A DNA stretch of 62,499 bases, counting the filler, from Nitrospinae bacterium RIFCSPLOWO2_12_FULL_45_22 (lineage in GTDB: Bacteria > 2-12-FULL-45-22): the NCBI GenBank assembly GCA_001803565.1. It is 6 parts of 6 records of this genome, joined end to end, with 100 filler letters (N's around TTAATTAATTAA, not from the genome) between each part and the next. Parts side by side here need not be neighbours in the genome. Positions count along the whole stretch, not along the records: positions 27,402 to 41,617 come from MHDQ01000074.1; 5 more parts are not named here. One strand, given 5' to 3'. Within the stretch, counting starts at the first letter, position 1, and the number at the start of each line of letters is the position of its first letter. The notes below the pieces were generated by a model. The model saw nothing but the letters and a program-made list of their open reading frames with translations, ran no database searches and was not told the DNA's origin. A program made the translations under genes and the position numbers. Shown piece by piece: positions 9,278 through 50,355 of the stretch.

Positions 9278-9377
9278 NNNNNNNNNNNNNNNNNNNNNNN
9301 NNNNNNNNNNNNNNNNNNNNNTTAATTAATTAANNNNNNNNNNNNNNNNNNNNNNNNNNNNNNNNNNNNNNNNNNNN
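9278..9377. other. Artificial contig linker
   Basis: 44 N + TTAATTAATTAA + 44 N. Confidence 0.98.
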
Positions 9378-12667: not shown

Positions 12668-13612
12668 TTAGGGTATATCTTTTTTGGTTAGGACAAAATC
12701 GCTTAGGACATCAATTTTAGTATAAGGGAGGGGAATTTCTTTGCCGTTCAACCGGAGCTTAGTACCCGCTACATGACCTATAATCAAGACAAATTTCTCC
12801 TGCGCGCTCCATTCCTTACTCATCCCGGCTCGCAATAATATGTCTTCCTGGCTCATCCCATCAGGAGAAACCCTTAGCCAGGCATCTTCCAGGGCATCTA
12901 TAGTCAAGATTAATGGAGGTGGGGTAGTTTTTCCGGCTTCTTTAATCACGCCTTTGGCCGCTTGCCCCATAGCACCTCCTTCTTCAGGTACAAATACTTC
13001 CGGGTGCTGGATGGTGGTTTCTCCAGTTTGTTCAGAGACTTTTGGATGTTGTTGTATGGCAGGTGTCTCAGATGGGCCTGGTTTCTCTTCCAGGGTTAGT
13101 ATGGGTGCTTGAATACTTTGTAAAGGGGGTTGTGCCAGGGGCTCTTTCTCTTTTTGGAATTTATCGCTAATCTTTGTTTCCGGTAATTCAGCACCCTTTT
13201 CCGTCTGTGGAGGGTATTGTCCTTTTTGTCGCCACATATCAGTCTGATAGAGATAGGATAGCACGGCTAACACAATAAAAATAATGGACACAACTGGTAT
13301 TAGATATTTCTGTGAAGAACGACTGATATCAAAAGGGTATTCCTTTTGGAGAAGAAGGTTTTTTCTGGCCAGTTCTGCCCGAGCCCAACTCTCTTTATAG
13401 GCCGTCAGGATCTTTTCTGGTTCAAATCCCAGGTATTGGGCATAGGTGCGTAAGAAACCCTTTATATATATGGGTGCTGAGAAAGGCTTAAAATCTTCTG
13501 CTTCTAAAGCCTTGATAAATTTTGGCTGTATTTTAGTAACTTTGCTGACCTCGTCTATACTCAGGCCCCTTGCCGCGCGCTCTTTTGCTAAGATTTCTCC
13601 CAGAGACGTCAT
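12668..13612 (-). CDS. rodZ: RodZ-like HTH membrane protein
   Basis: N-terminal HTH (YIKGFLRTYAQYLG), single TM, C-terminal DUF4115-like domain; start could be upstream (13648). Confidence 0.8.
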   Translation of the reverse strand: MTSLGEILAKERAARGLSIDEVSKVTKIQPKFIKALEAEDFKPFSAPIYIKGFLRTYAQYLGFEPEKILTAYKESWARAELARKNLLLQKEYPFDISRSSQKYLIPVVSIIFIVLAVLSYLYQTDMWRQKGQYPPQTEKGAELPETKISDKFQKEKEPLAQPPLQSIQAPILTLEEKPGPSETPAIQQHPKVSEQTGETTIQHPEVFVPEEGGAMGQAAKGVIKEAGKTTPPPLILTIDALEDAWLRVSPDGMSQEDILLRAGMSKEWSAQEKFVLIIGHVAGTKLRLNGKEIPLPYTKIDVLSDFVLTKKDIP

Positions 13613-19245: not shown

Positions 19246-19345
19246 NNNNNNNNNNNNNNNNNNNNNNNNNNNNNNNNNNNNNNNNNNNNTTAATTAATTA
19301 ANNNNNNNNNNNNNNNNNNNNNNNNNNNNNNNNNNNNNNNNNNNN
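19246..19345. other. Artificial contig linker
   Basis: N-TTAATTAATTAA-N, 100 bp. Confidence 0.98.
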
Positions 19346-27301: not shown

Positions 27302-27401
27302 NNNNNNNNNNNNNNNNNNNNNNNNNNNNNNNNNNNNNNNNNNNNTTAATTAATTAANNNNNNNNNNNNNNNNNNNNNNNNNNNNNNNNNNNNNNNNNNN
27401 N
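27302..27401. other. Artificial contig linker
   Basis: N-TTAATTAATTAA-N, 100 bp. Confidence 0.98.
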
Positions 27402-27900
27402 ACCCTCTCGCCATTTCTTTGACGGAATACGTCTGGGTTGATAATCAGATACATCTATTATCTCCACCTCATCCTCAGGTCTTGCTTGAGGCGCTTCATC
27501 AGGTCTCTGGATACCCTGTTTCTTGCGTATCCCCCGGGATTTATTTGTCTGCGTGCGACGCACAGGCAGGTTTGAATACCAGCCGTAGTAGCGTACCATC
27601 GGGAATGATTTCTCCGGGATATGTTGGGTAATGGCTGCTGTGAACTCTTCAGCCTGGTACATCTGGAAATTCTTTTTATTCTTCCCCCGGCTCATCCTGG
27701 AATGGTAGATAACTGTGCCCGTCTCCTCGATATAGCTCGTCTTCTCAAGGGAAAAGGTATTGCGGATAATATGCGGATAATATACTGTGATCGGGCCTCT
27801 CTTCCCTCTTCATCATCCCTTACCACCTTTACCCCGTTGTGCACACTAAAGCCGGAATGTCTCCAACTCATAAGATTGAGCAATTACCTTTTTTGGTCAA
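27402..27900 (-). mobile_element. IS91-family transposase pseudogene fragment
   Basis: SWRHSGFSVHN, QYIIR, QHIPEK...VRYYGWYSN across shifted frames. Confidence 0.82.
27546..27571. repeat. Mini palindrome inserted in frame in the transposase
   Basis: Reverse strand ACCTGCCTGTGCGTCGCACGCAGACA. Confidence 0.8.
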
Positions 27901-27930
27901 AATAAGCGAGAAACAAGTAATTTCATCTTA

Positions 27931-28557
27931 TCATCTATTTTTTTCTTCTGTCTTTGATCCTTCTTCTAGTCTCTTTAATAATTCTTCGGCCCTTTTCCGG
28001 TTCTCTTCTGAGCCTTTGCCAAATACCTCCATAATAGACTTTTTTTGCTCTGGGCTCAACGCCCTACGACCCTCACCCTTTTTCTTTGCGGACTGCAATG
28101 CCTCGATAAAAGGGTTAGGTGGGGTAGGTGTGGGTGAAGGGGGAGTAGCTATGGTGGAACCCTTAGGCCCAGGCCCGGATGAACGGGGAATAATATTGAC
28201 CTCTTTAACTGCATAAGGAGAGCCGGTTTGATCTGGGGAGAACACCATATAATAATCTGTCCCTTCCAGTAATTTTTTTAGCCCTTTTTCTAGGGGAAGG
28301 TTCTTGAACTCCATAGTAACCTTCCGTTCCACCGGCTTTTCCATAACGATCTTTATCCCACCCTGTCTGGATATTTCTTCCAGGACACCTTTTAACTGCC
28401 TATCTTGCAACGATACTGATAATAAGCCCTTTTCCAGCGTTACACCCGATGGAGGAGAAATCCCTTCCGGCCCCCCACCTGAAGCGCTTCCTGAAAGGAA
28501 GCAAATGGCATTTATCCAAATAAATAGTGTTAACCCACCAAGCCTTAACCTTTGCAT
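27931..28557 (-). CDS. Exported protein with secretin-N/STN-like domain and Pro-rich linker
   Basis: Signal-like N-terminus; LSVSLQDRQLKGVLEEISRQGGI...VTMEFKNLPLEKGLKKLL. Confidence 0.6.
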   Translation of the reverse strand: MQRLRLGGLTLFIWINAICFLSGSASGGGPEGISPPSGVTLEKGLLSVSLQDRQLKGVLEEISRQGGIKIVMEKPVERKVTMEFKNLPLEKGLKKLLEGTDYYMVFSPDQTGSPYAVKEVNIIPRSSGPGPKGSTIATPPSPTPTPPNPFIEALQSAKKKGEGRRALSPEQKKSIMEVFGKGSEENRKRAEELLKRLEEGSKTEEKNR

Positions 28558-28587
28558 GACCACTAACCTCCCTCTCTTTTGGTTATT

Positions 28588-28600
28588 NNNNNNNNNNNNN
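28588..28600. other. False scaffold gap
   Basis: CTCCCTCTCTTTTGGTTATT duplicated on both sides. Confidence 0.8.
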
Positions 28601-28779
28601 CTCCCTCTCTTTTGGTTATTGGTTATTGGGTCATTGGTCATTTACTAATGACCAGTAACTGATGACGATATGTTCATCTGCGTCCAAAATTTCTATAGTG
28701 TCATTGCAACTTGGTATTAGCCACAAAAATACACGAATGAGCATTAATGAAAGAAGCTGGAATTCGTGTCTATTTGTGG

Positions 28780-29847
28780 CTAATCAGTTATCATTTCTAT
28801 ATAGACTTTTAATTGGGGAAGGAGCTTCTCTTTGTCGAAATCTTTTAGTCTGGCCGATTGGTTTTCTATTATCCTTTCCCTTAAGCCTTGATCCTTTAAG
28901 ATTGTATCTACCAACTCAGCTAATTCTTCATACCGCTTTTCTTTAACCAATACCCCTGACCTGCCCAGGGTATAAGGTACCGCACTGGACTTAAAGGCTA
29001 CAATAGGTAGCTGGAAGAACATGGCTTCTAAAAAGGGTACCCCAAAACCTTCATGCTCACTCATAGACAAAAATATGTGGCTTGAGCGATAATAGGCAAT
29101 AAGCTCTTCCAGGGCTACCTGGCCGGTAAAGATAACCTGATCAAGATTTAGCTTTTTAATGAGATCTTGCAGGGCAATAAAGTATTGCTCCATGCCTTGA
29201 TAAGAACCGACCAATATGAGTCGGGACCTGGGATTAATATATTTATGGTAGAAATAGAAGGTCTTAATAAGGTCTTCATATTTTTTATTAGGTACAATCC
29301 TACCTACATAAATGATATTGATATTCCCATCATTATATTTGCTCATTATCTCCGGAGCAGGTTGTCGGGAAAATTTAGAAAAATCCTGAATAATAGGCAG
29401 AATTTCTACCCGCTTATAGCCTAATGCCTTGAGCTCTTGTAGGTTATACTCCGAGTCTGCCAGGCAGAGGAGTGGCATAGCGGAGAAGTTTTTCAATTCA
29501 GCCCGGCCAGCTTCTAAGAGGTGAGTCAACTGGTGGTTAAACCCTTCGAAAAACCAATGAGGGGTTATATTATGATAGATCATTACCTTCTTATCCGGAA
29601 TCTTTTTGACATAATCCTGTATATCAGTACCTATGGAGTAATGATAGATGGTTATATTTTGGGGCGAACTGACCTCCTTATGCTCCTGGTAATAGAAACA
29701 TTCTTTACTCATACGGGGATGGATATACTGCACATAAATATTTGACTGATATCCCCATTGCCGCAAGAAATTGCGGATTTCCAGGGCATGGTTGCTGATA
29801 GCATCACCATAGTCTAGATTGGGTAACAGTTGGTGAATCTGGATCAA
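28780..29847 (-). CDS. Glycosyltransferase family 4
   Basis: YGDAISN, YHNITP, VGRIVPNK, SEHEGFGVPFLEAM. Confidence 0.92.
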   Translation of the reverse strand: MIQIHQLLPNLDYGDAISNHALEIRNFLRQWGYQSNIYVQYIHPRMSKECFYYQEHKEVSSPQNITIYHYSIGTDIQDYVKKIPDKKVMIYHNITPHWFFEGFNHQLTHLLEAGRAELKNFSAMPLLCLADSEYNLQELKALGYKRVEILPIIQDFSKFSRQPAPEIMSKYNDGNINIIYVGRIVPNKKYEDLIKTFYFYHKYINPRSRLILVGSYQGMEQYFIALQDLIKKLNLDQVIFTGQVALEELIAYYRSSHIFLSMSEHEGFGVPFLEAMFFQLPIVAFKSSAVPYTLGRSGVLVKEKRYEELAELVDTILKDQGLRERIIENQSARLKDFDKEKLLPQLKVYIEMITD

Positions 29848-29848
29848 A

Positions 29849-31579
29849 TTATCCCCTCTTAGCTATAATGGCGTAGTCCTGGTAGCCATAAAGCACTTCA
29901 TTTATCTGATCTATGTTTCGGTTCATAAGTTCTAAGAGCCCCTGGTATTCTTTTCCCAGGCTGTTTTCTGGTATCAGCTTCTGGAGAATAAGCTCCGGGG
30001 AAAAGGGACTCAGGAAAAGGGTCTGGACTTCTTTAAAGCCTAAATATTCCAGGAGGAACCGTAAGGCTTCGGGATGCAAGGGCTTGATGTGAGAAAGATC
30101 AAGGTAGAAATTTCTGATAGCCGAAATAATACTCAACGGATTAATGGTCTCAGCAATAAAGATACCACCGGGCTGCATCTTCTGATAGCAGAGTTTAATA
30201 AATTCCTGCAGAGAAGGGCTAGGTAAGTGTTCCAGGAGTTGAGCAGCGAAGACCCCCCCAAGGGAGGAGTCTGATAATGATGTTAGATAGTCCAGGGCCT
30301 CTTTCTGCTCTACTACTAATCCCCTTTGCTGGCAATAATAAACCATGTCTTCGGAAATATCTATGCCTCTTGCGGGTATGCCTTGCTCTCTCATCAATTC
30401 TAAAAATTCTCCTCGGCCACAGCCCACATCCAATATATCAGACATACCTGAAAAATAGGGGAGATATACCTTGAACCGTTCTCTTATCTCGTCAGGTAAG
30501 CCCCGGTAAGTATGTTCGAAGAGGAAATAAGCGTGGTCCATAAGCCGCTCCTGGTGAATAACCAAACTGCGGGCTAGTTCAGGTTTTAAATGGGTTTTCT
30601 TACGTAGATCGGATAGAATGATATCTAGCCTTCGTTTTAACAGGATATTTTCTTGTTGTAGGGCAGTATATTTCTGGTAAAGGGTTAGGTGCCGATCCTT
30701 CAACTGGGCAAGCTCTTTTTGCAACCCCTCATTCCATTGATCAACCTTATCAAACAGGGCCTGGTGGTGTTGTGCCAACTGTGCATGGTCTTGCCTTACC
30801 TCAGCATTCCACAAATCAACCTTATCAAACAGGGCCTGGTGGTGCTGTACCAGCTCAGCATGGTTTCGATTCAATTCAGCCTGTTGTTGTCTGGTTTCAG
30901 CATTCCAGCGATCCACTTTATTGAAGAGCTGGTCATGTTCCAGCCTCAACTGGGCATGGTCTTGTCTGGTCTCAGCATTCCAGCGATCCACTTTATTGAA
31001 GAGCTGGTCATGTTCCAGTTTCAACTGGGCATGGTCTTGTCTGGTCTCAGCATTCCAGCGATCCACTTTATCGAAGAGCTGGTCATGTTCCAGTTTCAAC
31101 TGGGCATGGTCTTGCCTGGTCTCAGCATTCCACAAATCTACTTTATCAAATAACTCCTCATGCCTTTTGGTAAGGTTATTATTTTGCCCTTCTAATCCAC
31201 CAAGTTTTGCGGTTAACTGATTTATCACCCTGGTAGCGTTAGCATTAAATACCACCTGCTCACCTAATATTAGATTTATGTAAGGCTTGGTTAATCTTCG
31301 TAAGGCTTTTTTAGAGAAGATAATTACCGGCCCCAGGATTCTGCGATGGGACAGGATAGGGACTTTGTTTTTTAACTCCCAGTCAAGATTCATTTGCCGT
31401 AATTGTTCCTGAAAGCCATGATCAGCCGGGCCATGCGCAGAATCTACTTTACCATCCATCTTCTTTACCCATTCTATCTCCTCATCGGAATATACTCCTA
31501 GAGCTTTCTTTCGTCCTATGTTTTCCTTGATCTGTTCCATTATCTTTTCTACTTCTTGATCCTTAATCTCTATATCCAT
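29849..31579 (-). CDS. Coiled-coil class I SAM methyltransferase (glycan-capping type)
   Basis: Amphipathic SHRRILGPVI..KKALRRL, long repeat coil, ILDVGCGRGEF, LLEHL, ETINP, FYLDLSH, YQDYAII. Confidence 0.85.
   Translation of the reverse strand: MDIEIKDQEVEKIMEQIKENIGRKKALGVYSDEEIEWVKKMDGKVDSAHGPADHGFQEQLRQMNLDWELKNKVPILSHRRILGPVIIFSKKALRRLTKPYINLILGEQVVFNANATRVINQLTAKLGGLEGQNNNLTKRHEELFDKVDLWNAETRQDHAQLKLEHDQLFDKVDRWNAETRQDHAQLKLEHDQLFNKVDRWNAETRQDHAQLRLEHDQLFNKVDRWNAETRQQQAELNRNHAELVQHHQALFDKVDLWNAEVRQDHAQLAQHHQALFDKVDQWNEGLQKELAQLKDRHLTLYQKYTALQQENILLKRRLDIILSDLRKKTHLKPELARSLVIHQERLMDHAYFLFEHTYRGLPDEIRERFKVYLPYFSGMSDILDVGCGRGEFLELMREQGIPARGIDISEDMVYYCQQRGLVVEQKEALDYLTSLSDSSLGGVFAAQLLEHLPSPSLQEFIKLCYQKMQPGGIFIAETINPLSIISAIRNFYLDLSHIKPLHPEALRFLLEYLGFKEVQTLFLSPFSPELILQKLIPENSLGKEYQGLLELMNRNIDQINEVLYGYQDYAIIAKRG
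30692..31162 (-). repeat. Six in-frame 75-bp (25-aa) tandem repeats, unit 4 with one extra heptad
   Basis: HDQLFNKVDRWNAETRQDHAQLKLE-type units at aa 140-296; middle units nearly identical at DNA level. Confidence 0.95.
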
Positions 31580-31876
31580 GACAAAGAACCCTCCTTAATT
31601 GCTTAGAAGGCCCCCCTGGCCCCTACGTGCCACAATAAACAACATTAAACAAAAATAATATGTAAAATGAAGTAACAGTTACAATTATTCAATAACCCAA
31701 GCCTAAGCCTAATCTTATCATTATAGGGAGGGGTAAAGCAAGCGGCTTTCTGTCTCTTCAGTGATAAGAATACTTGAATTCAAGGGGAAAAAAGTATAAA
31801 CTTGTGGATTATTAAGAATTTTGTTTGAGCAAAATTTAGAGACAAAAGTTTTTCCCTAAAACTTTTCAGACATTTA

Positions 31877-31997
31877 GCCACAGAGTCACGGAGGACACAG
31901 AGTAACAGCAGGGCCTTGCCCTGCCATAAAGGTAAAGGTTTAAGCAGAGCAAGGCTCTGCAACTACCCTTCCTCTGAGTTATCTGGGCCTCTGTGGC
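31877..31997. repeat. GCCACAGAG-type palindromic element with inner inverted pair
   Basis: AGCCACAGAGTCACGGAG ... CCTCTGTGGC; related copies near 14893 and 32161. Confidence 0.6.
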
Positions 31998-32291
31998 AAT
32001 ATTAAAAAAGCTACTATCTCTCTAAACTGGGGAAAATTTAATGTCTCTTTGCAGACTTAAAAAGGCTATAAACAAAATTCCTGTCAAGAAAGACTGGAGG
32101 AGGTGATGAGCTGACAAAGGGTTTTGCTCTAGCAATAAGAAATTCCCTTCTGTAATTACTTGCCACAGAGACAGAGGGTGGAGAGAGAAAACTTTTTATA
32201 CTCCGTGTTCTCGGTATTTAAGTTTTTTGTTCCCTGCAAACTGTGGTGAGAAAGGCTTACTATTAATTTTCTAAAAAGGAGGTTAAAAGGC

Positions 32292-32846
32292 ATGATAATA
32301 TATCGCTTAAAGAAATATCAACTTTTTCTCTTATCCTTTATTATTTTATCCCTTTTCGGAACAGCTAGTTGTGCAAAAAAAGGCAAGGTAAAACCCGGAA
32401 CAACGGCTGGTATTGAGGGTCCATCAGCCTTAGAAGAAGAGGAGCTTGGGGAGCTGGAGGCAAAGGGGCCAGGGGGATTAGAAGAAGCCGAAGGAGCCGT
32501 TATGCCGGCGGAGGGGTTGGGAGATGTATATTTCGATTATGACAAAGCTATTATTGGATCCGAGCATAGGGCTACCCTAGAAAAAAATGCTCAATGGTTA
32601 AAAGCTAACGCACAAACCAAGATTTTGATTGAAGGACATTGTGATGAACGGGGTACTATAGAATATAATCTGGCACTAGGTGATAGGAGGGCCAATGCGG
32701 CCAGGGATTATCTGATATCTCTCGGTATTGATCCATCAAGGATAGCTACTATCAGCTATGGGGAGGAAAAACCTTTTGACCCTGGGCATAATGAAGAGGT
32801 ATGGTCACAAAATAGACGGGCCCATTTTGTGTTAACTAATAAATAG
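32292..32846 (+). CDS. pal: Peptidoglycan-associated lipoprotein
   Basis: Lipobox TASC, VYFDYD, IEGHCDERGTIEYNLALGDRRA, SYGEEKP, NRRA. Confidence 0.95.
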   Translation: MIIYRLKKYQLFLLSFIILSLFGTASCAKKGKVKPGTTAGIEGPSALEEEELGELEAKGPGGLEEAEGAVMPAEGLGDVYFDYDKAIIGSEHRATLEKNAQWLKANAQTKILIEGHCDERGTIEYNLALGDRRANAARDYLISLGIDPSRIATISYGEEKPFDPGHNEEVWSQNRRAHFVLTNK

Positions 32847-32962
32847 GCGTCTCCATTACATTTCGATATCTACCAATAGGAGAGCCCTTATTGGTCTCAC
32901 CACCGAGCGGCCCAAATTACCCCTTTACAATAGAGCTATGGGTGCGATAGAGAAAAATTTTA

Positions 32963-32991
32963 TTGACAGCCCATAGATAATGGTTTAGCAT
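32963..32991 (+). promoter_or_regulatory. Putative sigma70 promoter
   Basis: TTGACA-17 nt-TAGCAT upstream of the Cys-rich gene and lipoprotein array. Confidence 0.6.
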
Positions 32992-33088
32992 AAAAAAAAC
33001 TCAGAGGGAACGCTTCCCAGCTTAATTAATAGAAGGGAGGGAAACAATCCCTCATTATTTTTTAGTGCTGACTGGAAGGAGAGGACAG

Positions 33089-33346
33089 ATGACATCCCAT
33101 AAAGGGAAAAATCTTTACGTATGTAGGACTTGTGGTATAGCTACAGTAGGGACAGGTCATCTGTGTGACCCAGCGCCATTGCCTAAAGAAGAGGCCTTTA
33201 ATTGTGACTATTGTGGGAAGATTGTTACCAATCCCCGGCATATTTGCAAACCTATGGCCTTAAAAGCCGAATATAACTGTAAGATTTGTGGTCGGGTTTC
33301 AGACCGACAGGATAAACTGTGTGACCCGCATAAGATGGAAGGGTAG
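33089..33346 (+). CDS. Small triple-repeat Cys-rich protein
   Basis: Three CxxCG-x7-(H/K)xCxP units; AAGGAGAGG RBS. Confidence 0.75.
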   Translation: MTSHKGKNLYVCRTCGIATVGTGHLCDPAPLPKEEAFNCDYCGKIVTNPRHICKPMALKAEYNCKICGRVSDRQDKLCDPHKMEG

Positions 33347-33434
33347 GGAGATTTATTTTTTGTAAGTAGCGTACCAAAAAAGTATAGGTTTTTTTAATAA
33401 GATTAATTTTTGACAGGGAAGGAGGTGATAGAGG

Positions 33435-33755
33435 GTGCTCAGAAGAGATAATATTAGATTATTTATGGTGTGCGGACTGGTGTTGGTTTTTATGTGTACT
33501 TTGACAACAGGCTGTACCTGGCGCAGTCACGGCATTAAGGCAAAAGATGAGGCATTAGCGGCTGCCCAGAAGGCAGATGCGGCTGCCCAGAAGGCGATGG
33601 AGGCTGCACAAAAGATTGAAGCCTCTGCCGGCACTATAAAAGAATCAGCCGATAAAACTGAAGCGGCTGCTTCGAAGGCGGAGGATGCGGCAAACCGGGC
33701 AGAAACAGCCGCCGAAAAGACCGAGGCTATCTTTGACAAATTGGGCAGGAAGTAA
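33435..33755 (+). CDS. Alanine-zipper lipoprotein, Lpp/OprI-like, type A
   Basis: Lipobox TTGC, Ala heptads (AANRAE), ends LGRK. Confidence 0.82.
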   Translation: MLRRDNIRLFMVCGLVLVFMCTLTTGCTWRSHGIKAKDEALAAAQKADAAAQKAMEAAQKIEASAGTIKESADKTEAAASKAEDAANRAETAAEKTEAIFDKLGRK

Positions 33756-33829
33756 ATCTGCTAAGGGCTGGGTTCAACCGATCCAGCCCCTACCTCTGTC
33801 TCCGAGAGGCAGCAGAAAGGAGGGGATTT

Positions 33830-34147
33830 TTGGTGCAGTTAAGAAAATTAACAGCCATTATTGTGCTTCTAGGATTTCTATTGGCTAATTTAACAGCTTG
33901 TTGCCCAAAATGGCGTAAAGAGACCCTAAAGGCGAGGGATGATGCTATTGCAGCAGCGGCTAAGACCGAAGAAGTCTCAAATAAAGCATTAGGGGCTGCT
34001 TTAGACTTAGAATCCTCGATTCAAGGGGTTAATGATGCTGCCCAGCGGGCAGAAAATGCTGCCACACGGGCAGTAACCGCGGCTGACAAGGCTGAAGCGA
34101 TAGTAGGAAAGATGGAAAAAGCCTTTGAAAAAAGAGGGAGAAAATAA
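33830..34147 (+). CDS. Alanine-zipper lipoprotein, type B
   Basis: Lipobox LTAC, AAQRAENAA, ends RGRK. Confidence 0.82.
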   Translation: MVQLRKLTAIIVLLGFLLANLTACCPKWRKETLKARDDAIAAAAKTEEVSNKALGAALDLESSIQGVNDAAQRAENAATRAVTAADKAEAIVGKMEKAFEKRGRK

Positions 34148-34238
34148 TTTAATCGTATAGGAATTTTCATTTTAATAATGCGGTTTTGTGGTAGTCGCAG
34201 GTTTTAGCCTGCGTTAATTTAAAGAAAGGAGGTGAGAT

Positions 34239-34571
34239 TTGGTGATTAGATTACATAATATTAAAGGATTAATGGTTTGTATATTGCTGGTGGCTTTTAT
34301 GGTAGCTTTGAACACGGGCTGCTCCTGGCGGGGTCATGTCAACGATGCCATGAAGGCCAAGGATGATGCCGTAGCAGCGGCTGATAAAGCTGAAGCGGCT
34401 GCGCAGAAGGCGGCGGATGCTGCTCAAAAGATTGAGACTTCTGCAGCAACCTTAAAAGAAACGGCTGATAAAGCTGAAGCGGCTGCTTCCGGGGCAGAAG
34501 ATGCGGCAAACCGGGCAGAAACCGCGGCAGAAAAAGCGGAAGCTATCTTTAGTAAATTAGGTAGAAAATAA
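34239..34571 (+). CDS. Alanine-zipper lipoprotein, type A'
   Basis: Lipobox NTGC; paralogue of 33435-33755; ends LGRK. Confidence 0.82.
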   Translation: MVIRLHNIKGLMVCILLVAFMVALNTGCSWRGHVNDAMKAKDDAVAAADKAEAAAQKAADAAQKIETSAATLKETADKAEAAASGAEDAANRAETAAEKAEAIFSKLGRK

Positions 34572-34637
34572 ACCTAGGCAAGGGCTGGATTCAACCCTTG
34601 CCTACCGCTACGATGAGAAAAAGGGAGGTGTGCCGAA

Positions 34638-34949
34638 TTGCGGATAAAAAGATTACTTATTATTCCTCTAGGGTTGATATTTCTGGTTAATTTAGTGGCC
34701 TGTTCCCCGGCCTGGCGTAAGGAAGCCTTAAAGGCAACGGATGCTGCTGTAGCAGCGGCTGATAAGGCTGATACCGCCTCAAGTAAGGCTTTAGCTGCTG
34801 CTCAAGAGTTGGAAGCATCTATCCAAAAAGCCAATGATGCGGGCCAGCGGGCAGAAAATGCTGCCTCCCGGGCAGAAAGCGCGGCTGGCAAGGCTGAAGC
34901 CGTAGTGCAAAAGTTGGAAGAGACCTTTGCTAAAAGGGGGAAGAAATAG
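34638..34949 (+). CDS. Alanine-zipper lipoprotein, type B'
   Basis: Lipobox LVAC; paralogue of 33830-34147; ends RGKK. Confidence 0.82.
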   Translation: MRIKRLLIIPLGLIFLVNLVACSPAWRKEALKATDAAVAAADKADTASSKALAAAQELEASIQKANDAGQRAENAASRAESAAGKAEAVVQKLEETFAKRGKK

Positions 34950-34972
34950 GTACCAGCGATAAGAAGTTCTTC

Positions 34973-35013
34973 AAAAAGCCGGGACTTTAAATAAAGAAGG
35001 CCCGGCTTTTTTT
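34973..35013 (+). terminator. Intrinsic terminator after the lipoprotein array
   Basis: AAAAAGCCGGG-loop-CCCGGCTTTTTTT. Confidence 0.75.
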
Positions 35014-35198
35014 ATCCAAAATTATTCATCACCAGACGCAAAAGGCGCAAAAAGCCGTAAGGCGATAACTCTTCATCCCCTTACGCCTAACCCCTCACTC
35101 CTTACGAGGGACATATCTTTGTGTCTGGTGCATAATTTAGGATTGTGGTGATCAACCACCACAGGGGTTTATAAATCCTATTATAGGGGAGTGAGGTA

Positions 35199-35654
35199 TT
35201 GCAAAAAAGGATTGGCGTTATAGGATCCGCCGAATGCCCTGCGACTACCTCTACCCTGGCAGAAGAAGTTGGCTCCCTGATAGCAGAAAGGGGAGGGGTT
35301 CTTATTACCGGCGGGTTGAGTGGCGTGATGGAAGCTGCTTGTAGAGGGGCCAAAGCCGCTGGTGGCTTGACGGTAGGTATTTTGCCAGGATTTGATGCCT
35401 ATGAAGCCAATCCCTTTGTGGATATACCTATTGTAACAGGGCTCAGTCATGCCCGAAATGTAATAGTAGTAAGGAGTGCCGAAGGAATCATTGCTATTGA
35501 GGGAGGTTATGGCACCTTATCAGAGATTGCCTTTGCCTTAAAGATCGGGAGGCCTATTGTAGGGATAAATACCTGGCAGGTAGTGCCCCAAATTATTCAG
35601 GCCAGAGACGCCAAAGAGGCGGTAAGAAAGATTTTTGAGGCCATTGGCCCCTAA
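35199..35654 (+). CDS. TIGR00725-like LOG/SLOG Rossmann-fold protein
   Basis: TGGLSGVMEAACRGA, VGILPG, ARNVIVV, GGYGTLSEIAFA. Confidence 0.88.
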   Translation: MQKRIGVIGSAECPATTSTLAEEVGSLIAERGGVLITGGLSGVMEAACRGAKAAGGLTVGILPGFDAYEANPFVDIPIVTGLSHARNVIVVRSAEGIIAIEGGYGTLSEIAFALKIGRPIVGINTWQVVPQIIQARDAKEAVRKIFEAIGP

Positions 35655-35751
35655 GAGAAAGCCGTGAAGAGTGGGGAAGTAAGCAGCAACAGGAGTTAAC
35701 ACCTCTCGGCTCACTCGTTACTCCTCACTGCTGACGGTCTAATAGTTCAAG

Positions 35752-36444
35752 ATGGCTTCTTACCGGGCGATAAGTAGATATTTTTTGGTACTTTTTGTAA
35801 TGAGTTTAATAGTGGGTTGTGCTTCTCCCCGCCCCTATAAGGTCTCAACTCCATCAGACCGGGTACGTTATGTACCTAAAAAAGGTACTTATCATACGGT
35901 GAAGAGGGGCGAAACCCTCTGGCAGATAGCAAACACTTATGATGTTTCCATAGAAAGCCTGATAAGGGCAAATAAGCTATCCGATCCCAACAAGATTATA
36001 GTGGGCCATAAGCTGTGGATTCCAGGGGTTGAGGAGGTTTCCCGTACTACCGGGTGGAGTAAGAATCCAGATTTTATCTGGCCCGTGAAGGGGGAAATAA
36101 TTAATTATTTTACTAAATCAGACCGGGAGATACGTCCGGGGATTGATATTGCAGCCCCCCTGGGGAGTGATATAATAGCCGCTTTGCCTGGCAAGGTAAT
36201 TTTTAGTGGGGATGGTCCTGGTACCTTAGGGAAGATGATAATCATTGCCCATCCTGATGCGTTTACTACTATCTATGCTCATAATTTAGAGAACCTTGTC
36301 TCGGTTGATCAACAGGTAAGAAAAGGGGAAAGGATTGCCCGGATAGGTACTCCCCTAAGATCTCCTTCCCCTTCATTACATTTTGAGATCAGGAAAGCCG
36401 CTATACCTTATAACCCTTTGTTTTATCTCCCTAGTAGGTATTGA
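35752..36444 (+). CDS. nlpD: LysM + degenerate M23 lipoprotein (NlpD-like)
   Basis: Lipobox IVGC, LysM HTVKRGETLWQIA, WPVKG, RPGID and SLHFEIR lacking two M23 His residues. Confidence 0.72.
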   Translation: MASYRAISRYFLVLFVMSLIVGCASPRPYKVSTPSDRVRYVPKKGTYHTVKRGETLWQIANTYDVSIESLIRANKLSDPNKIIVGHKLWIPGVEEVSRTTGWSKNPDFIWPVKGEIINYFTKSDREIRPGIDIAAPLGSDIIAALPGKVIFSGDGPGTLGKMIIIAHPDAFTTIYAHNLENLVSVDQQVRKGERIARIGTPLRSPSPSLHFEIRKAAIPYNPLFYLPSRY

Positions 36445-36494
36445 AAGCTAAAAGCGCAAAACGCAAAGGGTAAAACTAAGGAGGGTATTAATTT

Positions 36495-37013
36495 ATGGTA
36501 GAAGAGTTAAAGCAAAAGATTCGGGACATACCAGATTTTCCTAAGAAAGGTATTTTGTTCAAAGACATTACTACTCTGTTAAGTGATGCCGAGGCATTTT
36601 CCCGGGCAGTTGACCTTATAGCTGAGCGGTACAGGGACAAAAAGATAGATAGTATTGTATGCATTGAAGCGCGTGGATTTATATTCGGTGGTGCTTTATC
36701 ATACAGATTAGGTACGGGGCTTATTCCAGTAAGAAAAGCTGGTAAGCTGCCCTATAAGACTTATAAGGCTACTTATGAGCTGGAATACGGGACGGATACC
36801 CTGGAGATCCATCAGGATGCTATCCAACCCGGCCAGCGGGTATTGATTATTGATGACCTTCTGGCTACGGGTGGTACTACCAACGCGGTAGCTAACCTGG
36901 TCAGGCAGTTAGAAGGTGAGGTAGTAGAGCTGGCTTTTTTAATTGAATTGACTTTCCTGGAAGGCAGGAAAAAACTAATAGATTATGAAGTCTTTTCCCT
37001 AATTAAATTCTAA
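36495..37013 (+). CDS. apt: Adenine phosphoribosyltransferase
   Basis: [34 protein letters not shown]. Confidence 0.97.
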
Positions 37014-37014
37014 G

Positions 37015-37127
37015 ATAAGCTATCAGCTAAAAACAATCGTGAGGCATAAGGGGTAAATGGAATTTTACCTCACGCCTTACCCCTTACGACTTACGGAAAA
37101 GCTGATAGCTGACGGCTGAACGCTTAC
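37015..37127. repeat. Nested heptamer palindromes between convergent genes
   Basis: AGCTATCAGCT/AGCTGATAGCT enclosing CGTGAGG...CCTCACG. Confidence 0.65.
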
Positions 37128-37130
37128 ATT

Positions 37131-38453
37131 CTAAGGGAGCTTCAGGATAGCATTTAAGAGTTCTTCTAGTAAGGTTAATACTCCCTGGTAGCCGAGGAAA
37201 GGCCGCTCTGTCAATATAACCTTATCCCATACTGGATAGCCTATATTGATAAAAGGGGTATGGGGTCGAAGCCCTTTTTCTAAGCTGCTACCCAGGATAA
37301 GCTCGGGTTCAGTCTCGGTCAGGGCTTGTTGCACACCATAAAGGTCGTAGTTGGTTAAGATAAGGGGATTTAAGCCGGTGGTTTGCAAAAAGTCTTTAAC
37401 CAGCTTTTCTACCCCGGGGCTATAGGTCTTTAGCCCTAAAAGGGCCGGCTCCAACCCCAAATAATCATAGAAGAATGAGGCCAGGGATAAGGCTGCTGAG
37501 CCTTCAGCAAAGATAGCTACCGAGAGCCCCCTTATCCGCCGGGCCATAGAGATGCGGGAGAGGCGCGGGCGGACTTTTTCTCTTAAGCGACGGGCCTCGT
37601 CTTCTATAAAGCCATCGGCTGATACACCCAGGACAGAAGCAATAGCCCGGAGCCATTCCTGGGTGTTTTGTATACCGTAGGGGGGAAGACGTCCAGCCAG
37701 GTAAGGGAGCCCAAAAACCTCTTCCATCTCCCGGGCTATCAGCCCACCATATTCATCATAAAAGACTACATTAAGGTTTGCTTCTGGTGCCCGTACTATA
37801 TCGGCCAGGGATGTTCCAGCCGTCAGGACAGTATTTATCGCTATCCCTACCCGCTCGAACATCCTTTTTAACTCCTGTAGATCATTATACCAGTTATATT
37901 GCCCTATACTGAGACCGACAATATTTATACTCCTGGGATTCTTTTTTATTGGGGGCTCCATCAATCTATGAACCATAATCTTCACCGCCTGTTGAAACCC
38001 TTCTGCCATGCCTCCGGTAAAGCCACTACTTTCTATGAGGATAGTGGAGGTTCCATCCTGGGGCAGTTCCTTTATTGCTGCCGCAATATTATCTCCTATG
38101 AGGCCCAGGGTACAGCTATTGACGATACCGATAAGGCCGGGGGACTCTTCCTCTTTGATCTTCCTCATGGTGTCTAACAGACGGGTTTCGCTGCCAAAGA
38201 TTACATCTTCTTCCATCAGGTAAGTGCAGGGGACACGGGGTTGGAAAAAATTTTTTAAACTGGCATGCCTCTTAGGGTCAAAAGATAACCCTTCTGGGTC
38301 TTGCAGGTCTATAAAGGATGAGGCAAAGAGCTTACAGCCTATGGGTCCATTGATTAAAGCCACTGCCTCTCGGATACCTTCAATAGCACAGATAGCGCCC
38401 GATAAAGAGCAGGGTAATAAAACATTATTAGGAACAGATTTCGGGCAGCTCAA
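37131..38453 (-). CDS. Nitrogenase component-1-like oxidoreductase, second subunit
   Basis: Cys15, Cys40 (NGPIGC), Cys114 (SCTLGLIGDN), VIFGSE, PYGIQNT, PFLGYQG. Confidence 0.85.
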   Translation of the reverse strand: MSCPKSVPNNVLLPCSLSGAICAIEGIREAVALINGPIGCKLFASSFIDLQDPEGLSFDPKRHASLKNFFQPRVPCTYLMEEDVIFGSETRLLDTMRKIKEEESPGLIGIVNSCTLGLIGDNIAAAIKELPQDGTSTILIESSGFTGGMAEGFQQAVKIMVHRLMEPPIKKNPRSINIVGLSIGQYNWYNDLQELKRMFERVGIAINTVLTAGTSLADIVRAPEANLNVVFYDEYGGLIAREMEEVFGLPYLAGRLPPYGIQNTQEWLRAIASVLGVSADGFIEDEARRLREKVRPRLSRISMARRIRGLSVAIFAEGSAALSLASFFYDYLGLEPALLGLKTYSPGVEKLVKDFLQTTGLNPLILTNYDLYGVQQALTETEPELILGSSLEKGLRPHTPFINIGYPVWDKVILTERPFLGYQGVLTLLEELLNAILKLP

Positions 38454-39763
38454 TCGCCTGTCCTCCAGCGTTCTTTATAATAGGGATTACGTAATAACCT
38501 GGCCCATTCCTTAGCTATCCCTAATGTCCCAGCAGTACCTGTCCGGGGCACCATAGGTATGGTAGAAAAGACCGTGCCAGGAAGGTCCAATTCCAACGGG
38601 TAGAAGGAGAGGCAGAGTTGGGGCTTTGCTTCTTTGACTTCCTCTTCTATCTCAGCCAGAGAAGTCCTCTTTTTTATAGCCAGGCCAGGCCGTGAAATTC
38701 CTAGATTATTTATCCTTTCTGCCGAAGTATCTTCGGGCATAAGGGAGAAAATATTAATGGCCTGGAACTCCATCCCAGCCTGATCAATCAGCTCTACTAA
38801 CCACTCTATATTTTTATCCAGGGTATTAATTATCACCCTTTTGCCAGCCAGAAACATCCTGAGAGGTTGGATAGTTTGGTAAAATCTGCTTTTTTCTTGC
38901 CCGATAAGTTCTGCGGCCTTTTCTTCTTGCCGAAAATACTTTCCTAATTCCTCCAGCCAGGCTTCTGTCTCAGCCAGTCCGGTAGGAAAATCTCGCGCTA
39001 AATATTCCTGACCAAATTTTTCTTTTAATATCTGAGCCACCAAAAGGCCGGTTTCGTATGAGCTAATAAGATTTAGTCGAGATTCAGCCATAGTTTTTAT
39101 TTCTGTCAAAGTAGTTTCTTTAGCAAAGCGGGTATGGACACTAATACCCAGGCAGTCCAACCACCTCTTTATCTCTTTATAGTTCCAGTCTACCTCGGAG
39201 GACATGCTCTTCTCACCCAGGATATTCACCCGGTCAGAGAACCTATCTCTGGGAGGGGCTACCAGGTTTTCAATCAGGTCCCGACAGGCATTCCTCACAC
39301 CCTTCTCGTACCCACCACCCATAAATCCCCCTGACTCAATAACTAATATAGGGATGCCTAACTCCCGCTCCAACTCTTTAGCAATGGCTCTAATGTTGTC
39401 CCCAATGACTTCTACCGCACAGGCAGAGACAATGCTGATCAGATTAGGTCTGTGCCGTTGATAGACTTCTAAAACAACCTCTTTTAATCGGCCTTCTCCA
39501 CCAAATACCATATCCGCTTCCTGTAGACAAGTGCTGACCATACGTGGCGGAGAGAGGGGTACGGCTAATTGGTCATTTATGATCTGTCTGCGCAAGGCCA
39601 TGGATACTTGCATAGCAATATTTTGGTGGATGCAACCTACCGGCCCATGGATTATGACCATACTATCTTTTATCTGCTCAGCTATTACTGCTGCGCCGGC
39701 CATGGTACAGCCATATTGAAGACCTCTGAACCGTGGACTGCTATCTTTACCACATAGCTCCAT
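38450..39763 (-). CDS. Nitrogenase component-1-like oxidoreductase, first subunit
   Basis: Cys19, Cys44 (HGPVGC), Cys115 (ACAVEVIGDN), MVFGGE. Confidence 0.85.
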   Translation of the reverse strand: MELCGKDSSPRFRGLQYGCTMAGAAVIAEQIKDSMVIIHGPVGCIHQNIAMQVSMALRRQIINDQLAVPLSPPRMVSTCLQEADMVFGGEGRLKEVVLEVYQRHRPNLISIVSACAVEVIGDNIRAIAKELERELGIPILVIESGGFMGGGYEKGVRNACRDLIENLVAPPRDRFSDRVNILGEKSMSSEVDWNYKEIKRWLDCLGISVHTRFAKETTLTEIKTMAESRLNLISSYETGLLVAQILKEKFGQEYLARDFPTGLAETEAWLEELGKYFRQEEKAAELIGQEKSRFYQTIQPLRMFLAGKRVIINTLDKNIEWLVELIDQAGMEFQAINIFSLMPEDTSAERINNLGISRPGLAIKKRTSLAEIEEEVKEAKPQLCLSFYPLELDLPGTVFSTIPMVPRTGTAGTLGIAKEWARLLRNPYYKERWRTGD

Positions 39764-39964
39764 AATACAATATCATTTGCCTCCCATACAGGCTGTACGC
39801 ATCCCAGAAGTTTTTTGCAGAATAGTCCTTTACATCTGTTCTTGTTCTATTCATAATAATACCCATAAAAAGATTGGTATCTAGCGGAATTACTAGACGG
39901 ACTTAGTATATCACTATATGTTTTTTCTATCCATTATCTGTTCGACAATAAACAGGTACTAACG

Positions 39965-41449
39965 ATGACAGATAATTTATCCTGCCCGATATGTAAATTG
40001 GAGTCACCAGAATTTCAGATAACTGACGGTACTGGTGATTACGGTGAGGAAATAATATGCAATTGTGCACGCTGTGGCAAGTTTTTGATATCCAAAACAA
40101 CCGCTGCTGAAATCAATAAGAAGGGCATCGATGTTCGTACCAAGGTTTCATCATGGCTTAGAATGCAGAATGAGTTTCAGAAGCCCATGCCAAAAATAAA
40201 GATTAATGATGGTACTTTGGCTGAAATATTAAAGAATTTACCTAGCTATACCCCGTTCCAGAAACAATCTATACTATTAAATGCATTGGCAAACAAATCA
40301 GAATATCCCGGGAAGCCTATTTTATTCATTCCCAGATTTGATTACCCTCTTGCATGGGCAATCAACGAGGATGAATTAGTTTTTCATACAAAATCTCTGT
40401 TGGAAAGGAATTTGATTGATAGTACCGAAAATAATGAACTTAATAAGTATACCCTAACGACAGATATAATTGTGACTGTACACGGCTGGGATTACTTTCA
40501 AAAACATTTATCAAAACAAGTTTCTTCTGGAAATATCCCATGGGAACCTAATTTTCAACATGGGTCATTGGATGCCGAAACACAGGAATCGCATTGGGAT
40601 GTTTTTATTTCGCATGCAAGCGAGGACAAAAAAGATGTAGTTGAGCCCCTAGCAAAAGAATTGAGAAGTCGAAATTTGAAAGTATGGTATGACAAATGGG
40701 TCTTAAAAATTGGGGATCGTTTATTAGAAAAAATCGACCATGGGTTGTTACAGTCGCGCTACGGTATAGTTGTATTAAGCCCCAACTTTTTAAGGAAAGA
40801 CTGGCCCAAAAATGAACTTGATGGTTTAATACAAAAAGAAGTTGGGGGGAGAAAAGTAATCCTTCCTATTTGGCATAATTTGCGTAGAAGTGAAATCATA
40901 TCTTATTCTCCAATTTTGGCAGGCAGGTTAGCAGGCTCAACCGAGACAGGCATTAAGGCATTGGCCGAAGAACTTATTGAGGCTATGGAAGATTTGCCAA
41001 TACAAACAGAAGAAGTAGTTATATCCAAATCATTCGATATAAATGCTTCTTTTAAGAATGTGCGCATTACTGGTGATCTCCATAGATATTCTTTCATTTT
41101 TGGTATAACTCTCAATACCCCACCAGCTAAAAAGAATTTTCTGGTAAGATTATATTGGCCCGCTTTTATAAGAGTAACTATGAATAGAGATTTTACGAAT
41201 AGTCGTACAGTGATTAGGGATGGTAACGACTTTACAGAGTATTCCTATCAAAGTGAACAACGGCTTTATCCTGGAGACACATTCGAGGTCGTGTCTCCAA
41301 AAGGAAGAACTGAACTCGAATATGAGTTTGATCATAACATATGGTCTAAAGTGGAGCATGGTAAACATGAAATTTTATGGGAGATTTATTTTGAAGATCA
41401 ATTGCCAGTAAAAGGATCAATAAACTTTAAACAATTGAACATTTTCTAA
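39965..41449 (+). CDS. TIR-domain protein with N-terminal Zn-ribbon/wHTH-like region
   Basis: CPIC..CARCG; WDVFISHASEDK, VWYD, VLSPNF, WPKNEL; lower GC than neighbours. Confidence 0.9.
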   Translation: MTDNLSCPICKLESPEFQITDGTGDYGEEIICNCARCGKFLISKTTAAEINKKGIDVRTKVSSWLRMQNEFQKPMPKIKINDGTLAEILKNLPSYTPFQKQSILLNALANKSEYPGKPILFIPRFDYPLAWAINEDELVFHTKSLLERNLIDSTENNELNKYTLTTDIIVTVHGWDYFQKHLSKQVSSGNIPWEPNFQHGSLDAETQESHWDVFISHASEDKKDVVEPLAKELRSRNLKVWYDKWVLKIGDRLLEKIDHGLLQSRYGIVVLSPNFLRKDWPKNELDGLIQKEVGGRKVILPIWHNLRRSEIISYSPILAGRLAGSTETGIKALAEELIEAMEDLPIQTEEVVISKSFDINASFKNVRITGDLHRYSFIFGITLNTPPAKKNFLVRLYWPAFIRVTMNRDFTNSRTVIRDGNDFTEYSYQSEQRLYPGDTFEVVSPKGRTELEYEFDHNIWSKVEHGKHEILWEIYFEDQLPVKGSINFKQLNIF

Positions 41450-41467
41450 TAAGGACAGAAATAAAAT

Positions 41468-41524
41468 AGCGAACAAATCAATCCAGCCGACTCGTTATAC
41501 TCGCGGCTGATTTTCACGTTCAAA
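41468..41524 (+). mobile_element. Integron attC-like site
   Basis: R'' AGCGAAC, 5 nt, L'' AATCCAGC ... L' GCTGATT, 5 nt, R' GTTCAAA; one extrahelical base in L''. Confidence 0.75.
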
Positions 41525-41543
41525 CGTTATGCACACAAATTAA

Positions 41544-41572
41544 TTGACAAAAACACAGGTATGATATAAAGT
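41544..41572 (+). promoter_or_regulatory. Putative sigma70 promoter
   Basis: TTGACA-17 nt-TAAAGT before ATG 41589. Confidence 0.55.
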
Positions 41573-41588
41573 AATACTAGAGGTACCT

Positions 41589-41617
41589 ATGGGCAAAAGA
41601 AAAATTGCAATAACTTT
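41589..41617 (+). CDS. Start of a probable RHH/CopG antitoxin (partial)
   Basis: GAGG RBS then MGKRKIAIT, cut by contig end. Confidence 0.4.
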
Positions 41618-41717
41618 NNNNNNNNNNNNNNNNNNNNNNNNNNNNNNNNNNNNNNNNNNNNTTAATTAATTAANNNNNNNNNNNNNNNNNNNNNNNNNNN
41701 NNNNNNNNNNNNNNNNN
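41618..41717. other. Artificial contig linker
   Basis: N-TTAATTAATTAA-N, 100 bp. Confidence 0.98.
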
Positions 41718-41736: not shown

Positions 41737-41952
41737 TTATATCAAATTTTTACGTGAGTAAAGCAGATAGGCAGTTTTTATTATTATCCTTGGACGGGTA
41801 AGAACTTCGGCAAGTTCCTGAAGCATGGGCTCAGAGATGACAACATGGAAATCGCCTTGTTCAAAGGATTTTCGTAACCTTGCAGGAAAGCCGAAAGGAT
41901 TGAGTAAAGAAGAGACCCAGATGTTGGTGTCAATAACAGCCTTAACGGCCAC
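41737..41952 (-). pseudogene. PIN-domain toxin, truncated
   Basis: [14 protein letters not shown]...SEPMLQELAEVLTRPRI, then homology lost; only 71 aa. Confidence 0.75.
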
Positions 41953-42181
41953 GTTTTTCTTCTCTGACCTCTTTTATGGCATGGGAAATATCGGATTCTA
42001 TCTCTTCAGAGGTGTATTGTGTAGCTTTTTTGTGTATCTTCTCTATAATGCGGTTAAATCGACTCTGCCATTCATCAAGATAGATTATCTTTATAGTAAC
42101 TTTTTCATGTTCTTTTGCCTCCACCTCTTGAAGAGGTTTAAAAACACCGTTTTCAAAAACAGCATCTATTATTTTAGACAT
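41942..42181 (-). CDS. AF2212/DUF104-like antitoxin
   Basis: [13 protein letters not shown]; overlaps the PIN gene. Confidence 0.8.
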
Positions 42182-50255: not shown

Positions 50256-50355
50256 NNNNNNNNNNNNNNNNNNNNNNNNNNNNNNNNNNNNNNNNNNNNT
50301 TAATTAATTAANNNNNNNNNNNNNNNNNNNNNNNNNNNNNNNNNNNNNNNNNNNN
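50256..50355. other. Artificial contig linker
   Basis: N-TTAATTAATTAA-N, 100 bp. Confidence 0.98.

Follow-up and report, generated by a model that had tools for sequence, protein, structure and literature searches.

A TIR-domain gene of undescribed three-part layout in a probable integron cassette of an uncultured Nitrospinae bacterium

The stretch of DNA analysed here, called the window, comprises 62,499 nucleotides from Nitrospinae bacterium RIFCSPLOWO2_12_FULL_45_22 (GenBank assembly GCA_001803565.1, here G000) and contains a TIR-domain gene that, according to an earlier note made from the sequence alone, is packaged as a mobile integron cassette with a role in defence. We find that the segment at 39941-41518 (~1.58 kb) is very probably an integron gene cassette, consisting of one open reading frame (ORF) and its attC site. 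Public metagenomes hold contigs in which other DNA takes the place of this segment, with the break lying in the left recombination core, and the ORF (39965-41449, plus strand, stop codon TAA at 41447-41449) encodes a protein of 494 aa in which a Zn-ribbon/winged-helix part, a TIR domain and a C-terminal beta-sandwich follow one another. The fuller account developed below, in which cassette, mobility, protein and mechanism are taken together, we hold to be moderately probable.

The window chains separate contigs through N44-TTAATTAATTAA-N44 linkers (9278-9377, 19246-19345, 27302-27401, 41618-41717 and 50256-50355), so that genes flanking a linker are not neighbours. The contig that bears the TIR cassette, MHDQ01000074.1 (C74), corresponds to 27402-41617, and because it ends there, the sequence to the right of 41617 in the window does not adjoin it.

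An attC site recognised by a model from the same genome

The attC site lies 18 nt past the TIR stop codon, in the same orientation as the gene, and spans 41468-41524 (57 nt, plus strand), with R'' at 41468-41474, L'' with its extra C at 41480-41487, L' at 41506-41512 and R' at 41518-41524. Its sequence, AGCGAAC-AAATC-AATCCAGC-(18 nt)-GCTGATT-TTCAC-GTTCAAA, has the 7-5-8...7-5-7 geometry that the earlier note had described. The core boxes are inverse, R'' (AGCGAAC) ending in AAC and R' (GTTCAAA) beginning with GTT, and these AAC and GTT cores are invariant across 15 reference attC sites of the genome. Between them the L boxes, AATC-C-AGC and GCTGATT, form 7 of 7 pairs around a bulged C, both spacers are 5 nt long, and the A of CGAC stays unpaired, like that of GGAC in the covariance model introduced below. 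Blastn of the cassette tail found the R''-L'' arm to be identical, at 20 of 20 nt, to an attC on contig C140, and a regular-expression scan brought up about twenty genomic sites that share the boxes of these two.

Does a model trained on other sites recognise this one? We built a covariance model, R1, from 15 attC sites on other contigs of the same genome, leaving out the site under test; its alignment (A2) retains 15 of 16 sites, a misaligned row from contig C243 having been dropped. With the canonical structure imposed, 85.4% of the cells in this training alignment pair, against 71.9% in shuffles, and its covariation score was reached by 0 of 500 shuffles. Run over the whole window with filters off, R1 scored the cassette attC at 38.2 bits (E 4.8e-7), so that the kind of check proposed in the earlier note, there with the attC model of IntegronFinder, came out in favour of the site when carried out with a model from the same genome. 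Three matches were found in the window at E<=10, the cassette attC being the sole one on C74; a weak attC-like match, 21.5 bits (E 0.009), stands on another of the contigs at 13314-13364 (minus strand). Genome-wide, 45 matches were obtained at E<=1, including the 15 training rows.

Integrons are well represented elsewhere in the genome. Two intact IntI genes lie on contigs C304 and C243; against a TIGR02249 cut-off of 265 bits, the two reach 467 and 439. On C304 four attCs, oriented as expected, accompany intI, and several cassette arrays are found on contigs other than C74. We also observed many fragments of IntI genes, on C115, C136, C7, C317, C17, C287, C248, C95 and C106, and these suggest that the genome holds several integrons that have decayed or been split. 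For 27 of the 37 best attCs, no more than 25 nt separate the site from the end of the longest ORF upstream, and the TIR ORF is the longest of these ORFs. A scan of cassette contents on the loci fetched gave 16 ORFs of at least 100 aa, 9 of them without a Pfam match and the rest including two PIN proteins, MazF, an HTH protein, a cupin, DUF6680 and a TPR protein; such contents are typical of chromosomal arrays. The TIR gene is AT-rich, as had been noted, with a GC content of 0.34-0.39, compared with 0.45 genome-wide and 0.43-0.53 in the DNA just upstream.

A polymorphic left junction

The 5' boundary of the cassette is marked by the core GTTCGAC (39940-39946, plus strand), which stands 18 nt 5' of the ATG at 39965 and places the recombination point, G|TT, at 39940|39941. 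The earlier note had pointed to this box and to the complementarity between its GTTCG and the CGAAC of R''; both are present, and over the whole boxes GTTCGAC agrees with the reverse complement of R'' (GTTCGCT) at 5 of 7 positions. On its own the GTTCG is weak evidence, since it is expected by chance 0.019 times per 60 nt.

The junction can also be read from natural populations, in Logan contigs of four public runs (X1-X4), of which X1, X2 and X4 come from three studies and X1 is possibly the window's own sample. In X1, X2 and X4 one contig keeps to the left flank as far as 39942, where GTT ends, and then diverges into sequence that opens with a GTTAGCC core, whereas the TIR junction is bridged by other contigs in X1, X3 and X4 and by an independent metagenome assembly (L031). 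Because the divergence falls at GTT in contigs of three studies, we take it to be a real recombination junction and the cassette to be polymorphic in nature. The first 30 nt of the alternative sequence after 39942 are absent from assembly G000 with up to 3 mismatches allowed. On the right, other contigs in X1 and X2 break at 41529 or 41532, with different sequence before the break and greater depth, and a depth spike over 41464-41551 reflects other attCs of the family.

Several observations weigh against reading the segment as a complete and typical cassette. The bottom strand of the attC takes the canonical shape at only -7.6 kcal/mol (z -1.33), and 20 of 200 shuffles fold as well, whereas two strong attCs of the genome fold at -12.4 and -16.1 kcal/mol. 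The outer 3 of the 7 R pairs are mismatched, as is part of the central stem, R' reads GTTCAAA rather than GTTRRRY, and the site ranks 30th among the R1 matches of the genome. The right-hand breakpoints fall near a second core-like box seen in the sequence just after R', GTTATGC (41526-41532, plus strand), and not at the G|TT of R' itself. On C74, R1 with filters off found no attC upstream of the TIR gene and TIGR02249 found no intI; a blastn-short search of the left flank for an attI returned nothing, and the flank shows no similarity to the intI-proximal DNA of C304 or C243 (23 and 117 of 200 shuffles, respectively, score as well). Since C74 terminates 93 nt 3' of the attC, only one such site is visible, and the source is a metagenome-assembled genome (MAG) that is 85% complete and in 321 contigs. 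Contigs with the TIR form have mean depths of 6.1, 6.5 and 3.3, those with the other form 12.5, 12.8 and 5.1, and the upstream sequence reaches 16, 14.6 and 6.5; being Logan depths, these values are not shares of cells. Lastly, an attC-like R1 match at E<=0.01 accompanies the gene in only 2 of the 13 homologue loci searched, a proportion that is a lower bound because R1 is tuned to the attC type of this genome.

A complete integron, with intI and attI directly upstream, is not found at C74, and with a single attC before the contig end the definition of an integrase-less cluster of attC sites (CALIN), two or more attC, does not apply on present data. Given the lack of intI, attI and upstream attC, and a contig that ends 93 nt on, the segment either is an orphan cassette or heads an array that lacks an integrase.

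The same features are what a stranded relic would show, that is, a former cassette that has become an immobile chromosomal gene: no attC, attI or intI upstream, a weak hairpin with a mismatched central stem, GTTCAAA as R' and a low rank among the sites of the genome. This explanation concerns mobility only and overlaps the one we prefer, but it sits poorly with the population data, where alternative sequences are joined exactly at GTT, so that exchange at this position must be active now or have been so recently. Nor have the parts that integrases read decayed, since the L boxes with all their pairs, both extrahelical bases and the AAC and GTT cores are intact. A relic is thus possible but doubtful, and from the mobile-cassette reading we infer that the unit could still be excised today.

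Zn ribbon, winged helix and TIR

The N-terminal domain (residues 1-190; 39965-40534, plus strand) combines a CxxC...CxxC Zn ribbon with a winged helix, in keeping with the N-terminus foreseen in the earlier note. Its four cysteines, C7, C10, C34 and C37, are nearly invariant, and residues ~94-191 model as a winged helix (AF2 pLDDT 81). The best match in VIA was the MarR structure 2qww_A (Z 9.7, rmsd 2.7 over 80 residues, model residues 96-186), and each of the 50 rows listed there is a winged-helix protein or includes a winged-helix domain; the N-terminal domain has no Pfam match and no Foldseek match at E<=1e-3. It also precedes TIR-only proteins, as well as proteins in which the other part weakly resembles a nucleoside deoxyribosyltransferase or a TIR.

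The TIR domain (residues ~205-340; 40577-40984, plus strand; Pfam TIR_2 E 4.2e-21) belongs to the AbTir/Tcp clade. It matches AbTIR of the PDB (8g83_A) at E 3.1e-43, and its nearest solved structures are AbTIR, PdTIR and TcpB. The PADLOC profile PDC-S66 matches at E 1.2e-58, over positions 122-280 of 282 only, which is the TIR part of the profile and not the whole of it. The motif W280-P-K-N-E284 (40802-40816, plus strand) conforms to WxxxE, with E284 as the putative catalytic glutamate; in all 12 aligned homologues W280 and E284 are unchanged, so that the glutamate singled out in the earlier note is indeed kept, and WPKNEL aligns with WTNYEL of AbTIR. NADase activity is described as requiring the WxxxE motif (bioRxiv 10.64898/2026.10.06.757174), and AbTir carrying E208A is inactive (PMC10641520). 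Judged by this likeness, the protein is quite likely an active NADase.

A small family of C-terminal beta-sandwiches

The C-terminal domain (residues ~355-494; 41027-41446, plus strand) is modelled by AF2 as a beta-sandwich with a pLDDT of 90.3 and a pTM of 0.82, and has no significant match in Pfam, NCBIfam or PADLOC, which agrees with the view of it as beta-rich and of no recognised family. Foldseek, proposed as a check on this domain, gave only a generic beta-sandwich (best E 4e-4, TM <=0.48), and VIA gave no standout (best Z 9.1, with C3, C5 and integrins at Z 7.2-8.6). Matches at E<=1e-3 among 1.84 billion proteins come to 78 cluster representatives, and in nearly all of them the matched domain forms the very C-terminal end of the protein.

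The partners of the domain are varied. Among 79 proteins scanned it accompanies TIR_2 in 40, Schlafen in 4 (the Schlafen fusions of the family including proteins P0181 and P0190), SEFIR in 3, HNH in 3, and a kinase and HEPN in one each. Its fusion to Schlafen, HNH, SEFIR, HEPN and kinase domains suggests a swappable sensor. The idea of a possibly new sensor domain thus stands as far as novelty and alternative effectors go, and sensing itself is a role that the domain may plausibly have. Many homologues of ~290 aa consist of TIR and C-terminal domain only; TIR plus beta-sandwich thus forms the core that the family conserves, to which the Zn-ribbon/winged-helix part is an add-on.

Homologues and their loci

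Full-length homologues were found at 85%, 67% and 56% identity; ESM Atlas feature matches reached at most 0.82 and serve as leads only. The 13 loci searched with R1 comprise 3 from a metagenome scan and 10 of 80 from a genome scan, picked for a match that extends beyond the TIR domain. One of the two with an attC-like match, locus L036, comes from a Candidatus Scalindua MAG of another phylum, in which a protein 65% identical over TIR and C-terminal domain is followed, beginning 5 nt past its stop codon, by an attC of 36 bits (E 1.8e-6), with another of 22 bits upstream. This TIR-attC pair, the recognition of the cassette attC by R1, the two intact IntI and the public contigs that break at G|TT together uphold the integron cassette of the earlier note. 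Between the same two attCs as the TIR gene of L036 we observed an ORF of 315 aa and no known family (1898-2845), and the interval is either a two-gene cassette or one in which an attC has been lost between its two genes. The sequence at 2864-2996 of this locus was considered as a long attC and rejected (fold z +0.55); the GTTAGGC 5 nt before the ATG stands.

At a second locus, L032, whose protein is 62% identical, the order is a UvrD fragment, an attC-like site (26 bits), a HEPN cassette, a GCCTAAC...GTTAGGC hairpin and the TIR gene. The hairpin (1133-1173 of the locus; 41 nt, perfect, ending 27 nt before the ATG) folds at -17 kcal/mol (z -6.1) and has canonical GCCTAAC/GTTAGGC cores without L boxes or bulges; it is shorter than the attCs of the Nitrospinae genome and could represent an attC in miniature or some other element. 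The homologue of L033 (56% identical) adjoins a Type ISP restriction enzyme and has no attC, and that of L034 lies between RadC and a primase.

Flanking genes and other features

To the left of the cassette on C74 lie two adjacent genes for nitrogenase component 1-type oxidoreductases (Oxidored_nitro; 37131-39763, minus strand; Pfam E 1e-75 to 1e-80). Their best matches in 30 sampled genomes, one of which belongs to the same order, are 27-32% identical; at this distance there is no synteny, and a comparison with empty sites in relatives was dropped. A promoter-like TTTACA-17-CATAAT (39829-39857, plus strand; 10 of 12 matches in a consensus scan) lies outside the cassette and could read into it. 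Promoter-like sites in the region number 12, against 6.8 +/- 2.9 in shuffles, which is no evidence of function, and none of the 20 public runs listed as carrying the locus is an RNA run.

What follows the attC on C74 looks like the start of a next unit (41544-41617, plus strand), with a promoter-like TTGACA-17-TAAAGT followed by a GAGG and the beginning of an ORF (MGKRKIAIT...) that runs off the contig. This segment recurs in deeper contigs of X1 and X2, preceded there by other sequence and with the matched part ~3 kb inside them, and may be a multi-copy or shuffled cassette. The next contig of the window opens with a truncated PIN_3 ORF (71 aa) overlapping an AF2212-like small ORF (41737-42181, minus strand), probably a decayed toxin-antitoxin pair, and an ORF of 126 aa at 42200-42580 matches no Pfam family.

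Discussion

How might such a unit have arrived, and what might it do? In the account we favour, the cassette would have been joined to the chromosome at the G|TT core beside the nitrogenase-like oxidoreductase gene pair, drawn from a pool served by the genome's own IntI, which are encoded on other contigs. It would be either the first unit of a CALIN or an insertion at a secondary GTT site, and it is present in some genomes of the natural population, with other DNA in its place in others. In the cell, the accessory domains may hold the TIR inactive until a phage cue acts on them, be it a phage protein bound by the beta-sandwich, a nucleic acid bound by the winged helix, or both. The TIR domains would then self-associate and cleave NAD+, and depletion of NAD+, production of a cyclic ADPR isomer, or both would stop phage growth. 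An anti-phage function of this kind we favour slightly.

A bolder and decidedly tentative extension would make the beta-sandwich a portable sensor of phage proteins, of the same kind as, and perhaps homologous to, the sensor of pSlfn5, plugged onto TIR, Schlafen, HNH, HEPN, SEFIR and kinase effectors. Integron cassettes would then ship such fusions between phyla, as between this lineage and Scalindua, and a wild population would exchange alternative first cassettes at the left junction, a hot spot of insertion with neither attI nor integrase. In pSlfn5, a Schlafen nuclease, a C-terminal Ig-like domain senses a phage tail chaperone (PMC13056530, 2026). Here, too, an effector is followed by a C-terminal beta-sandwich that resembles the Ig-like domains of integrins and complement, and the family includes Schlafen fusions; the effector, however, is a TIR and not a tRNase. 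Compared by eye with the pSlfn5 material, a few short motifs look alike but differ in spacing, a likeness that we do not count. No homologue of P0181 is named as enterobacterial among the best 120 of 626, no enterobacterial plasmid was among 24 records bearing on a link to pSlfn5, and a C-terminal-domain profile (A5) found nothing in 401 genomes of the order of G031, a search that had no positive control and so shows nothing.

The cassette finds its closest precedents in the phage-defence cassettes of class 1 mobile integrons and Vibrio arrays, for which resistance has been tested (Kieffer et al. 2025, bioRxiv 10.1101/2024.07.02.601719; Darracq et al. 2025 and Getz et al., both cited in bioRxiv 10.64898/2026.03.17.712381). 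As in those, a single ORF of defence type forms a unit with its attC in a genome that has its own IntI; unlike them, the present cassette comes from an uncultured, barely sampled host and has no adjacent integrase or attI, and its defence role is a likelihood drawn from its domains. The word TIR does not occur in the available part of the text of the Kieffer preprint. CALINs, which are attributed to rearrangement or to integration at secondary sites (Cury et al. 2016, PMC4889954), likewise bear attC cassettes away from intI in genomes that encode IntI elsewhere. Single sites were discarded in that work as possible false positives, whereas the single site here is backed by homology within the same genome and by a population breakpoint.

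The protein can be compared with the TIR NADases AbTir and Tcp (PDB 8g83, 7uwg, 3h16 and 4lqc), with which its TIR domain aligns at E 3e-43 and shares the WxxxE motif. AbTir is a CC-TIR, one of the clades named alongside retron and DUF1883-TIR (bioRxiv 10.64898/2026.10.06.757174). The present protein lacks the N-terminal coiled coil that distinguishes CC-TIRs, in place of which it has the modelled Zn ribbon and winged helix, and it carries the beta-sandwich in addition. Neither "sandwich" nor "integron" occurs in the available part of that preprint's text. Mobile cassettes of this kind are known, but the three-part layout of the protein is undescribed.

The AbTir family is described as defence-associated, but the same source reports that AbTir gave no phage protection in E. 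coli (bioRxiv 10.64898/2026.10.06.757174), which counts against an anti-phage role and raises the possibility that a real cassette carries a TIR with another function: an enzyme that processes NAD or NAD-RNA, a toxin that keeps the array stable, or an effector that, like Tcp, acts on other cells. Removal of the NAD cap from RNA has been reported for TIR proteins of the clade (PMC10937652), and toxin genes (two PIN, MazF) are common in the cassettes of this genome. On the other hand, a C-terminal domain common to Schlafen, HNH, HEPN, SEFIR and kinase proteins is typical of sensor-effector fusions in defence, homologues adjoin a restriction enzyme and a HEPN cassette, and the cassette has neither a secretion signal nor an antitoxin gene, so that we consider a non-defence function improbable.

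Less probable again, and by some way, is a Thoeris-like signal producer, whose cADPR isomer would activate an effector encoded elsewhere and whose cassette would be incomplete alone. The TIR domain does match ThsB models (PADLOC ThsB1 at E 2.9e-33, and NCBIfam ThcB4 of type III Thoeris at E 9.5e-6, far below its cut-off). No ThsA-like gene stands beside it on C74, where the flanks are the Oxidored_nitro pair and the small cut ORF, the search for ThsA being confined to this contig; the protein has two accessory domains beyond the match to the ThsB profile, and its relatives travel as single genes (in L033, and the TIR gene of L036). A reading without any cassette, in which the hairpin after the gene would be an ordinary terminator or an inverted repeat due to chance, is close to refuted, for although the hairpin folds no better than shuffles and a T-run follows L', R1 recognises it, its arm is that of another attC of the genome, a terminator scan lists nothing at its position, and the 5' breakpoint falls exactly at GTT.

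That integron cassettes store phage-defence genes became known only in 2025, chiefly from Vibrio and clinical class 1 integrons, and the cassette described here would bring an uncultured lineage into that picture, with public metagenomes in which it is present or replaced and the break lies exactly at the recombination core. It adds an undescribed architecture to the AbTir family of TIR proteins, and it draws attention to a small domain family, of 78 representatives among 1.84 billion proteins, that is common to six kinds of effector. If the C-terminal domain is the sensor of the trigger, swapping it between effectors would directly test how single-protein defence systems acquire their specificity.

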